Positions 51,568 to 53,884 of a DNA stretch of 64,000 bases are shown piece by piece. Position numbers and translations under genes: made by a program. Location: the NCBI GenBank assembly GCA_026129095.1, contig JAHCIT010000004.1, positions 124,001 through 188,000 of the forward strand, written 5' to 3'. Numbering within the stretch: position 1 is the first letter of the stretch; the number at the start of each line of letters is the position of its first letter. The DNA comes from Deltaproteobacteria bacterium. GTDB lineage: Bacteria > JAGRBM01 > JAHCIT01. Under the pieces are notes generated by a model. It had not been told where the DNA came from, did not search any database, and was given only the letters and a program-made list of their open reading frames with translations.

Positions 51568-52278
51568 ATGTCAGGAAAAAGTCCACTCAAGTTTGAAACA
51601 TTCATCGAGCAGTTCCCCAGGCGGCTCGAAAAGGCCCTGTCGGGTTTCCGGGTAATCCGCCGGCTCGGCGACGAGCTTGAATACGAATACCAGGGGTTCG
51701 ACAACGCCCTCGACCTCAAGATCGTCTACGAGAAGTTCCACGAGATCAACGCCGACCTCGCCTCGCTGGTGGCCCGCTACGCCGACTACGTGCGCCAGTT
51801 CGCCGAGAAGTCCCGCCTGCCGCAGGCGACCGCGACGGCTGTGCAGCACTACAACGGCTACTCGGAGAAAGAGGCCGACTGGTTCGAGAAGGCCGCCGCC
51901 GAGCGGCGCCAGCGCCTGCAGCTAGCCGCGCCGCCGCCCCCGCCGCCGCCCGTCTCCACACCGTCGAACCGCCACCCGAAGGTGATCAAGGTAAAGCCCC
52001 GCCGCGCGCCCCGGCTTCTGGTGCAGCCCCCGCCGCCACCGGCGGCCGTCCCCCCGGCTTCCGGCAAGAGCGGCAACGGCTCCCACCCGGCGCCCTCGCG
52101 CAAGCGGGCAGCCCCGGCAGCGCGCAAGGCCGCCAAGGGTGCATCGGCCAGGAAGAGCCCCAAACGGGCCCCTGTCAAGGCCAAGCGCCCCGCCTCCAAG
52201 CCAGCGGGGCGCAAGCGGGCCAAGGCGGCCGCCAAGCCGCGTTTCATGGACCGGGTAAAAAAGCTGTTCGGACGCTAA
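51568..52278 (+). CDS. Hypothetical protein with a Pro-rich linker and Lys/Ala/Arg-rich (histone H1-like) C-terminal tail
   Basis: Helical N-domain, PPPPPP runs, then ARKAAKGASARKSPKRAPVKAKRPASKP. Confidence 0.75.
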   Translation: MSGKSPLKFETFIEQFPRRLEKALSGFRVIRRLGDELEYEYQGFDNALDLKIVYEKFHEINADLASLVARYADYVRQFAEKSRLPQATATAVQHYNGYSEKEADWFEKAAAERRQRLQLAAPPPPPPPVSTPSNRHPKVIKVKPRRAPRLLVQPPPPPAAVPPASGKSGNGSHPAPSRKRAAPAARKAAKGASARKSPKRAPVKAKRPASKPAGRKRAKAAAKPRFMDRVKKLFGR

Positions 52279-52295: not shown

Positions 52296-52706
52296 TCAGT
52301 GGGCAGGTTCGCGGGCGAAGTTCCGGTTCCAGCCGGGAATCTCGACCTCAAGATTCGCCGTCCCGTCGGGAACGGCCTGGCAGGCAAGCCGCGAGTCAGG
52401 CGTGTTGCCGGGGGCCTGCTCGATCCGGTCCAGTTCAGCGTCGGAAGGTTCGCTGAGGCTCCTGCCGCCCTGCCGGACGATGACGTGGCACGTGGAGCAG
52501 GCGCATACCCCGCCGCAGGCATGGTCAATGTCCACGCCATGCGCCAGCGCGATGTCGAGGATCGAGCCCGGCTCGCCGTCCCGTCCGTAGGGGATTTTCG
52601 CCGGGTCCACCTCGACGGTGACGTTCGCCGGCTGGAAGGTGACGCTGAACTTCTGCTGCGCCTTCCTCGCCTCGCCGCGCTGGATGTAGGGACTGCTTCC
52701 GCCCAT
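52296..52706 (-). CDS. fdx: 2Fe-2S ferredoxin (ISC/adrenodoxin type)
   Basis: HACGGVCACSTCH...SRLACQ. Confidence 0.93.
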   Translation of the reverse strand: MGGSSPYIQRGEARKAQQKFSVTFQPANVTVEVDPAKIPYGRDGEPGSILDIALAHGVDIDHACGGVCACSTCHVIVRQGGRSLSEPSDAELDRIEQAPGNTPDSRLACQAVPDGTANLEVEIPGWNRNFAREPAH

Positions 52707-52782
52707 CAGGAATCATGCTCCGAAAACCGGGCCACCAGGGCCCGGGCAGGTAATTGGCACGGCTTCCGGTAAAAAGGGAATA

Positions 52783-52859
52783 TGGTGCCCCCGGCAAGAG
52801 TCGAACTTGCGACCTTGGCCTTAGGAAGGCCCTGCTCTATCCAACTGAGCTACGGGGGC
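52783..52859 (-). tRNA. tRNA-Arg(CCT)
   Basis: gcccccgtagctcagttggatagagca-gggcc-ttcctaa-ggcca-aggtcgcaagttcgactcttgccgggggca-cca: cloverleaf, TTC loop and encoded CCA. Confidence 0.96.
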
Positions 52860-52981
52860 GAAAGCTGGCAGGGGCGGCAAACAGAGGCTCCGCCCGGCAT
52901 TCGCGGCCTGGCGGAGCCTGTGTTGAGGAAAACCCCAGGTTCCGGCCGCCAGAGGACGGCCGGAACCGGATCAGGCCGCGA

Positions 52982-53173
52982 TCAGATATCGCGGGCCTTC
53001 ACTGTGGCACGGTTCGAGGCCTTGGCCCGCTCGACGGCCTTGGCGACCAGGCGCTCCACCTCGGCGCTGATTGCCGGGATGGCTTCGGCCGAGCACTGCA
53101 TCTTCTTGCTCTTGACCAGTTCCTTGATCTTCGACTGAACCACGTAAATTTCCTTGGACTTGTTGTTGCTCAT
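52982..53173 (-). CDS. Bacterial histone-fold protein (Bd0055-like), 63 aa
   Basis: MSNNKSKEIYVVQSKIKELVKSKKMQCSAEAIPAISAEVERLVAKAVERAKASNRATVKARDI, with the RxTxxxxD histone-fold signature and SD ggagg. Confidence 0.88.
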   Translation of the reverse strand: MSNNKSKEIYVVQSKIKELVKSKKMQCSAEAIPAISAEVERLVAKAVERAKASNRATVKARDI

Positions 53174-53280
53174 TGAGCACTCCCTCCACAGTTTTTCTGA
53201 CCCGGCCCCGGCTGGTAAATTCCCCGGAAACCGCCACCTGTGCGGCTCCGGCCAGTCCGCAGGACGCGCCTTATGCACCG

Positions 53281-53310
53281 AGAATGGCCTTTAACGGTAT
53301 CTCCCGTCAA
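53281..53310 (-). promoter_or_regulatory. Putative sigma70 promoter for the histone gene (TTGACG-N18-CATTCT)
   Basis: Minus-strand hexamers with AT-rich tracts upstream. Confidence 0.45.
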
Positions 53311-53347
53311 CCAGAAAAATAGGCCCAAGCCCAATTTTATTGCCCTG

Positions 53348-53884
53348 TCAGTACTGGACCACCGAGGCCACACGGCAGGGTGAAAGGCGTTCACGTCCCT
53401 TAAGAAACTCCAGTTCCACCAGTACCGACAGCCCGGCCACATGCCCCCGGCACTCCTCGACCAGCTTGAGGACGGCCCCGGCGGTGCCCCCGGTGGCCAG
53501 GAGATCGTCCACGATCAGGACGTGGGCGCCCTCGGCAACCGCATCTGTATGAATTTGCAACGTATCCTCGCCGTACTCCAGGGCATAGGAGACGGTCTTC
53601 GTGCGCCAGGGGAGCTTGCCGCTCTTTCGCACCGGGACAAACCCGGCGTGCAGGTAGCTGGCGATGGCGCTGCCGAAGATGAACCCCCGCGCCTCGATGC
53701 CAAGCACCACGTCTATCCGTTCCACCTCGAACGGCTGGGCCATCAGCGTGATGGCGCTTTTCAGCAGCCTGGGATCGTGCAGGACCGGCGTGATGTCCTT
53801 GAACAGGATCCCCGGCTTGGGGAAATCCGGCACATCGCGGATGGCCTTGCGGATGGCAGCAACGGAAGCGGTCGTGGTGGTCAT
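53348..53884 (-). CDS. apt: Adenine phosphoribosyltransferase
   Basis: [25 protein letters not shown] and [10 protein letters not shown]. Confidence 0.97.

Follow-up and report, generated by a model that had tools for sequence, protein, structure and literature searches.

A predicted alpha3-truncated singlet histone encoded between apt and tRNA-Arg(CCT) throughout a small bacterial phylum

Introduction

Bacterial histones have been characterised only since 2023, and two modes of DNA binding are known among them, namely bending by the HBb dimer and wrapping by the HLp tetramer. The family considered here is already in print (Schwab 2024, PMC11390915; Hocher 2023, PMC10627809; Hu 2024, PMC11317129; and a 2025 preprint on HTkC); statements credited to these works, and to the report on HLp (10.1101/2025.05.08.652872, PMC12701072), go back to excerpts of them. 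In the excerpts from Schwab 2024 (PMC11390915), alpha3-truncated histones are described as proteins with a histone fold in which helix 3 is cut to 3-4 residues and helix 2 is shortened. The bacterial dimers (HBb group), a group defined by sequence clustering, lack the logo interface residues R48 and N52 and carry an RKTxxxD motif, and the defining criterion of face-to-face (FtF) histones is a homotetramer, predicted or observed, in which two dimers lie face to face (excerpts from Schwab 2024, PMC11390915).

Three solved proteins are the closest described systems. HBb (Bd0055) of Bdellovibrio bacteriovorus (PDB 8CMP, 8FVX, 9EZZ and 9F0E) is a proven dimer, the clamp of which is supported by its residue D49 (excerpts from Hu 2024, PMC11317129). 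HLp of Leptospira perolatii (PDB 9QT0, 9QT1 and 9QT2), a bacterial FtF alpha3 histone of 63 aa, forms a tetramer in solution and wraps ~60 bp of DNA; its tetramer interface sets R49, S52 and N53 against F63, T61 and R55, and its DNA contacts are A13, S14, K15, K17, K21, T27, G29, T56 and T57 (excerpts from 10.1101/2025.05.08.652872, PMC12701072). Finally, HTkC of Thermococcus kodakarensis (PDB 9F2C) is an archaeal FtF histone with a crystal tetramer (Schwab 2024).

Here, we describe a gene in a stretch of 64,000 nucleotides of deltaproteobacterial DNA (the window), the product of which is almost certainly a real histone-fold protein. We compare it with these systems, and we weigh whether it may act as a dimer of the HBb type or as a face-to-face tetramer of the HLp type.

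Results

A 63-codon gene under strong purifying selection

The gene and its immediate surroundings are arranged as follows.

52982..53173, minus strand: histone gene, 63 codons plus TGA stop (ATG at 53173, TGA at 52982-52984)
53180-53187, minus strand: Shine-Dalgarno sequence GGAGGGAG, 6 nt 5' of the ATG
53348-53884, minus strand: apt (adenine phosphoribosyltransferase-like; Pribosyltran 1.3e-15), the upstream neighbour
53320-53333, next to apt: terminator-like site found by consensus scan
52783-52859, minus strand: tRNA-Arg(CCT), the downstream neighbour on the same strand

A preliminary description of this DNA had taken the 63-aa frame with ATG 53173 and its Shine-Dalgarno sequence, and not the 98-aa frame around it, as the true reading frame, and both the coordinates and the restriction of conservation to the 63 codons agree with this choice. 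The 98-aa frame starts at GTG 53278, and in comparison with the orthologues of three further genomes of the same family (family f1) only its 63-aa part is conserved: 5' of the ATG the frame is unrelated in sequence and length, and the ATG, the Shine-Dalgarno sequence and the 63 codons are kept. In the locus alignment the GGAGGG box is invariant in all four family-f1 genomes. Nei-Gojobori estimates among the four family-f1 orthologues gave a dN/dS of 0.05-0.20 for the 63-codon frame (dS 0.48-1.0), and of 0.04-0.10 for the histone fold without its tail (codons 9-63). Since the upstream frame is unconserved and the 63 codons change in this manner, we regard the 63-codon frame as a genuine gene on which purifying selection is strong. 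The computed product has a mass of 6.9 kDa and is basic (pI 9.9, net charge about +6.5).

G+C-rich DNA leaves long overlapping frames open, here one of 88 aa on the minus strand and two of 140 and 118 aa on the plus strand, which would suit the alternatives that there is no gene at this place, or that the product stems from the 98-aa frame or from an overlapping frame on either strand. The low dN/dS of the 63-codon frame, the unconserved upstream protein sequence and the invariant Shine-Dalgarno sequence argue against them, as do the 2,519 homologous protein clusters and the confident fold prediction described below. These alternatives are refuted as far as computation can refute them, and we consider them extremely improbable.

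The product is predicted to adopt an alpha3-truncated histone fold

In a Pfam scan of the histone protein, CBFD_NFYB_HMF (PF00808) and DUF1931 gave no match at E<=10, and the NCBIfam model archaea_histone (NF043032) scored 15.3 bits, below its cut-off of 50. The HMM comparison with the histone-fold/CBFD_NFYB_HMF families, which the preliminary description had named as a check, was accordingly negative, and routine annotation would miss the histone, since Pfam holds no histone match for it. Two weak Pfam matches below the cut-off, TLE_N (E 0.014) and APOBEC1 (E 0.12, in the 98-aa frame), were rejected as chance coiled or helical similarity.

Comparison with solved chains by phmmer against the PDB gave HBb/Bd0055 as the best match (8CMP, E 2.4e-10, 43.3 bits; 8FVX, E 3.9e-10), followed by HTkC of Thermococcus (9F2C; E 1.4e-7, 34.8 bits) and HLp of Leptospira perolatii (9QT0; E 3.3e-6, 30.5 bits). 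A lineage profile built from nine relatives, six from genomes of the phylum and three from more distant genomes, scored HLp (6e-17) and HBb (9.3e-17) equally, with HTkC at 1.7e-15, and reached HMfA at 1.8e-3.

An AlphaFold2 (AF2) single-chain model made from an 88-row alignment had a mean pLDDT of 90.1 and the following layout.

Residues 1-9: N-terminal tail
Residues ~13-22: helix 1, followed by loop 1
Residues 31-52: helix 2 (22 residues)
Loop 2: after helix 2, with R55-x-T57
Residues 60-62: helix 3, a single turn of only 3 residues
Residue 63: I63, where the chain stops

When this model was compared with the PDB by Foldseek, ranks 1-9 were chains of HBb, HLp and HTkC (TM 0.80-0.86, rmsd 0.8-1.3 A), and canonical histone-fold proteins (MHF, H3/H4, HMfA and the Asgard protein HHoB) followed below rank 9. 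The R-x-T-x4-D motif (RD clamp) is present as R55-A-T57-V-K-A-R-D62, and in the 88-row alignment D62 is invariant and R55, T57 and R49 are each conserved in at least 90% of the rows. The motifs pointed out in the preliminary description were all found again (V11-V12-x-S14-K15-I16-K17..K21, SAEAIPAIS and RATVKARD). With its RD clamp and with the histone fold and the shortened helices 2 and 3 of the model, the protein shows all three features of alpha3-truncated histones, and by its sequence it is assigned to this family; the histone fold itself is a property of the model. Its earlier reading as a histone-fold protein of the singlet kind, with helix 3 truncated, is thus borne out by the agreement of AF2, Foldseek and PDB matches.

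Likeness to the characterised histones

The alignment to HLp is ungapped, so that both proteins share one numbering, in which the published logo positions R48 and N52 correspond to R49 and N53. Both have 63 aa, a short N-terminal tail, a truncated helix 3, the R55-D62 clamp, R49 and a C-terminus at position 63, and the model superposes on HLp with TM 0.85-0.86 and rmsd 0.8-1.0 A. S14, K15, K17, K21 and T57 are identical as well, and all hydrophobic dimer positions are kept. The overall identity, in contrast, is only 28-30%, and several functional positions differ: of the HLp interface residues, S52, N53 and T61 are A52, S53 (with N54 next to it) and R61 here, and of the DNA contacts, T27, G29 and T56 are C27, A29 and A56. 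In addition, Leptospira is described as being without HU (excerpts from 10.1101/2025.05.08.652872), whereas the genome studied here has three HU/IHF genes; the gene neighbours are smc/map in Leptospira and apt/tRNA-Arg here; and the HLp tetramer is observed, whereas our comparison draws on sequence and a single-chain model.

With HBb, the protein shares 53% identity in the structural alignment (TM 0.81-0.84), the helix-1 lysines K15, K17 and K21, the RD clamp and the state of a singlet gene in a genome that also encodes HU/IHF. HBb differs in having Ser and Asp at the positions of R49 and S53 and RKT in place of RAT, and its chains run ~5 residues beyond the aligned end, part of which may be a tag. 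HTkC is 45-46% identical (TM 0.80-0.82), with an equivalent of R49 and a C-terminus right after the clamp Asp position; it is archaeal and tail-less, carries Glu at position 53 and occurs alongside nucleosomal histones. The archaeal nucleosomal histones HMfA and HMfB have the histone fold and the R-x-T-x4-D motif in common with the protein, but their helix 2 is longer and their helix 3 full-length, as opposed to the one-turn helix 3 and 22-residue helix 2 found here, and they assemble into hypernucleosomes.

A mixed signature at the tetramer interface

On analogy with these proteins, we give an even chance to the overall best explanation, which is that the gene encodes an abundant alpha3-truncated nucleoid histone of the face-to-face variant. 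In this mechanism, two chains would form a histone 'handshake' dimer via their antiparallel helices 2, with hydrophobic contacts by I16, V20, I35, V39, L42, V47 and I63. The DNA backbone would be contacted by the N-terminal end of helix 1 (S14, K15, K17 and K21) and by the L1/L2 bridge, where T57 would be held by the R55-D62 clamp. Two such dimers may then associate via the C-terminus, L2 and the end of helix 2, where R49 of one dimer would pair with the free C-terminal carboxylate (residue 63) of the other, and the resulting ring-shaped tetramer might wrap ~60 bp of DNA, as is the case for Leptospira HLp. Provided that the protein has a nucleoid role at all, this tetrameric, wrapping mode appears slightly favoured.

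The two signature positions of the interface point in different directions. The interface Arg is kept as R49, and the interface Asn N53 is replaced by Ser, also in the three other family-f1 genomes; both genomes of family f2 carry N53. The combination at positions 49 and 53 is thus Arg/Ser here, Ser/Asp in HBb and Arg/Glu in HTkC. Since HTkC forms its crystallographic tetramer with a Glu at position 53, an Asn there appears to be dispensable for the tetramer.

To place these residues in the wider family, 300 domain pieces from 154 proteins and 91 locus ORFs were aligned to the profile, pieces of <45 profile positions being dropped. R49 and N53 occur together in 223 of them and R49 and S53 in 12, with other combinations in the rest; the 12 pieces are those of family f1, including duplicate copies of the same sequences, and P0108. 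The free C-terminus of the protein is I63, one residue past the clamp Asp D62. Among unique pieces that can supply a protein's C-terminus (the first half of each doublet and all rows lacking D62 being excluded), the chain ends exactly at position 63 in 179 of 193 domains that bear R49 and in 1 of 31 without it, the other 30 of these 31 having a C-terminal extension. As there are only 2 independent contrasts on supported branches, and 6 on all branches, this association is descriptive only and may reflect shared ancestry.

The nearest sequences outside the family carry R49 and N53 at 58-60% identity, and HBb-like sequences follow at 49-52%. In a FastTree phylogeny (281 rows, 57 columns) the family had a support of 97 and was joined with the two family-f2 orthologues (support 83). 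The histone lies inside a 25-row clade, every row of which has R49, and this clade falls in an 89-row clade (support 90) that also holds HBb-like, doublet and ZZ-type sequences. In a quick IQ-TREE analysis of 119 rows (30 singlets with R49 and N53, drawn at random, added to the 89-row clade), the seven rows of the phylum (SH-aLRT 82) were placed within 63 rows that all have R49 (SH-aLRT 91). Forcing them into a group with the 50 rows that lack R49 cost 80 lnL with an AU p of 0.0525, a borderline value for a group that was named after the tree had been seen.

These results bear on a second mechanism, in which an HBb-like dimer compacts DNA by bending it in the manner of HU/IHF, or by coating it, with neither tetramer nor wrapping. 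HBb is the top PDB match and has by far the higher identity in the structural alignment (53% versus 28-30% for HLp), N53 is Ser, the HLp interface residues S52 and T61 are not kept, the 89-row clade unites the 25-row clade with HBb-like and ZZ-type sequences, and a joint group with the HBb-like rows survives the AU test at 0.05; HU/IHF genes coexist with the histone here, as they do in Bdellovibrio according to excerpts of the HBb literature. Conversely, the protein keeps R49, which is absent from the HBb group in the excerpts from Schwab 2024 (PMC11390915), it lacks the Lys of RKT and the Asp at position 53 that corresponds to the clamp-supporting HBb D49, and it has no residues past 63 whereas nearly all domains without R49 have an extension; the Glu of the HTkC tetramer at the N53 position also weakens the argument from Ser. 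An HBb-like mechanism is therefore a serious possibility to which we attach rather less than an even chance.

The earlier comparison with Bd0055 holds in part. The family relationship and the best single-sequence match stand, and the protein joins a clade that holds HBb-like sequences; the dimer type of HBb is not clear for it, and the trees put it among rows that bear R49, outside the group that lacks this residue. In our reading of the sequences, the histone would belong to the R49-bearing, face-to-face-like part of the family, near the root of the HBb/ZZ branch and with one signature residue changed.

A single-copy core gene with fixed synteny

The histone gene was found in the genomes of all six species of the uncultured GTDB phylum, the window's genome included, and these six make up the whole phylum. 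Searches with the protein and with the 88-row profile each gave one copy in the window's genome (3.67 Mb, 96.65% complete), and neither found a second histone or a ZZ-histone in it. Three HU/IHF (PF00216) genes score over the cut-off in the same genome, and the histone therefore need not be its main nucleoid protein.

The gene lies between apt and tRNA-Arg(CCT) as had been described, with housekeeping genes around it (Fer2, a 2Fe-2S ferredoxin; argC; rpsI; pgi). tRNA-Arg(CCT) directly follows the histone in four of four family-f1 and two of two family-f2 genomes, and apt directly precedes it in five of five relatives (L012, L013, L014, L016 and L005). With apt-histone-tRNA-Arg(CCT) synteny in 6/6 genomes of the phylum, the view of the preliminary description that the gene is native is well founded: the histone gene is vertically inherited, and recent horizontal acquisition or an island was ruled out on the same grounds. 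A functional link to tRNA-Arg(CCT) was also considered and rejected; the histone has no AGG codon, its Arg codons being CGC, CGG, CGT and CGC, and for this reason we treat the adjacency as synteny.

Beyond the phylum, a word-index search returned four close relatives from four candidates (87-100% identity), and an exhaustive profile search returned 2,519 clusters at E<=1e-3, of which 625 reached E<=1e-10; many of the top profile matches are doublets of 118-130 aa. Pattern matches in species genomes numbered at least 599, and at least 289 of these encode a relative. Among the matches listed, 80 relatives come from Bdellovibrionota, Planctomycetota (Brocadiaceae), Peregrinibacteria, MAGs labelled Myxococcota, DPANN and Asgard archaea, and 10 of 41 genomes sampled around the window's genome have a match. 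Source annotation names none of the lineage's histones; one HBb-like cluster is labelled 'histone H3/H4' by one source.

Relatives with other architectures were seen in these searches. The best relatives of the lineage profile (P0005-P0041) are natural doublets with two alpha3 histone folds per chain (114-150 aa), and some doublet relatives (for example P0010, P0044 and P0054) have signal-peptide-like N-termini, which is odd for a DNA-binding protein. In the family-f2 genome G005 of the same order, a second histone paralogue of 174 aa (L011:1492-2016, minus strand; no Pfam match) joins a Cys/His-rich N-terminal part, which has CxxC motifs, to an alpha3 histone domain of the HBb-like type. Judged by its sequence, this arrangement fits the 'ZZ histone' architecture as it appears in the excerpts from Schwab 2024 (PMC11390915).

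A further gene of the window, a 236-aa ORF without Pfam match at 51568-52278 on the plus strand, encodes an N-terminal part of ~110 residues, a poly-proline linker and a Lys/Ala/Pro/Arg-rich C-terminal tail. The tail is reminiscent, as we take it, of the basic tails of the H1/AlgP/Hc1 type, and the product could be a second nucleoid protein encoded ~700 bp from the histone gene. Relatives with 61-65% identity occur in the three other family-f1 genomes at other genomic places; none were found with that query in two family-f2 genomes.

Expression signals

Three elements flank the histone gene.

53279..53310, minus strand: promoter-like element, with TTGACG (53305-53310), an 18-nt spacer and CATTCT (53281-53286)
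52927..52967, minus strand: terminator-like hairpin 14 nt past the stop, with a 13-bp G+C-rich stem (52938-52967) followed by UGGGGUUUUCC
52881..52923, minus strand: second strong hairpin of the histone-tRNA spacer, found by folding

The preliminary description had credited the gene with a sigma70 promoter of its own, and its end coordinate of 53310 falls on the TTGACG. The four family-f1 genomes show no change in this hexamer or in a 14-nt block (53279-53292) that includes the CATTCT, compared with 0.5-1.0 substitutions per site at the synonymous sites of the adjacent CDS, and the stretch between the 14-nt block and the Shine-Dalgarno sequence is unconserved at the same four loci. A sigma-70 consensus scan of 52700-53500, by contrast, gave no sites, and the -10-like CATTCT agrees with the consensus at only 3 of 6 positions. 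As the scan is empty, the reading as a candidate promoter rests on conservation, so that of the earlier claim the conserved TTGACG/CATTCT element stands and the match to a sigma70 consensus does not. Across the genome, TTGACG-N16-18-CATTC has 10 occurrences where base composition predicts ~3, a count too weak to establish it as a promoter consensus of the lineage; one of the ten, outside the window on G000 contig C18 at ~203349 (plus strand; TTGACGG-N-GCCATTCTCG), is very similar to the conserved box that lies upstream of the histone gene. The 5' UTR showed no significant structure (z -0.37).

The histone-tRNA spacer (about 122-131 nt) folds at -71 kcal/mol into two strong hairpins (z -4.27; none of 200 shuffles did equally well). 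The terminator-like hairpin has a short U run, and the consensus scan made no call there. In the three other family-f1 genomes (L012, L013 and L014), TTGACG-N17-CATTCA, a box of the type found before the histone, precedes tRNA-Arg(CCT), and at 52860-52900 of the window that tRNA box is unrecognisable, with a strong hairpin in its place. Given the absence of this box, the window's tRNA-Arg(CCT) may need another promoter, or may be transcribed together with the histone gene by read-through.

Codon weights were derived from the S10-spc region of the genome itself, with 19 genes for ribosomal proteins and elongation factors as the reference set. The CAI of the histone gene, 0.783, is above those of all 19 reference genes (0.48-0.75), and ranks at the 99.4th percentile among 2,345 long ORFs and at the 96.2nd among 5,000 random 62-codon windows, with the proviso that 62 codons give a noisy CAI and that the long ORFs of the background were picked heuristically. 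The HU/IHF homologues have values of 0.56, 0.68 and 0.63, apt 0.63 and the ferredoxin 0.66. As a proxy, this codon bias supports high expression of the histone gene, in line with the earlier claim of a well-expressed protein, the abundance of which is inferred. Contigs from RNA libraries cover the gene in four runs of 3 studies (X1, 52600-53693; X6; X17, 53140-53380; X18, 53106-53350); being assembled contigs, they indicate presence only, and neither level, ends nor transcription, and the parts left uncovered by X17 and X18 carry no meaning.

Discussion

Taken together, we consider the product very probably a general DNA-binding protein of the nucleoid, abundant and sequence-unspecific, by analogy with its characterised relatives; its dimerisation, DNA binding, abundance and tetramer formation are predictions. 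A role other than chromatin organisation, for instance as a specific regulator or a protein-protein adaptor, has to be weighed against this. According to the excerpts from Schwab 2024 (PMC11390915), prokaryotic histone-fold proteins need not all organise genomes, the three HU/IHF genes could fill the nucleoid task, and DNA binding is transferred here from homologues. Such a role is nonetheless quite improbable in view of the conserved helix-1 DNA-contact positions and R-x-T-x4-D clamp, the net charge and pI of the product, a codon bias like that of a very highly expressed gene, the single-copy core status in all six genomes, and the nearest characterised relatives HBb, HLp and HTkC, all of which are described in the excerpted sources as binding DNA without sequence specificity.

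The nucleoid histone may also be an evolutionary intermediate between tetrameric wrapping FtF histones and dimeric bending HBb, one that keeps R49 and the C-terminal carboxylate at the back of the tetramer interface, has lost the front Asn (N53S) and forms a weak, concentration- or DNA-dependent tetramer, and that would, with an expression exceeding that of HU/IHF, dominate the chromatin of a whole candidate phylum. We regard this proposal as speculative and unlikely; if it were true, the cell could switch between bending and wrapping its DNA.

The protein is a valid addition to a family that was catalogued recently, and no new kind of protein, and with thousands of sequences already catalogued the picture of the family is unchanged. 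Routine Pfam/NCBIfam annotation fails to recognise the alpha3-truncated histones as a family. Specific to the present case are the fixed synteny across a six-genome phylum, the mixed signature (R49 kept, N53S, RAT) and a codon bias above that of the ribosomal genes. Because its residues mix the signatures of both modes, this histone should be a useful test protein for the residues that set the choice of dimer or tetramer, and what it adds to the family is a lineage whose histone gene belongs to the core, in single copy and with conserved synteny.
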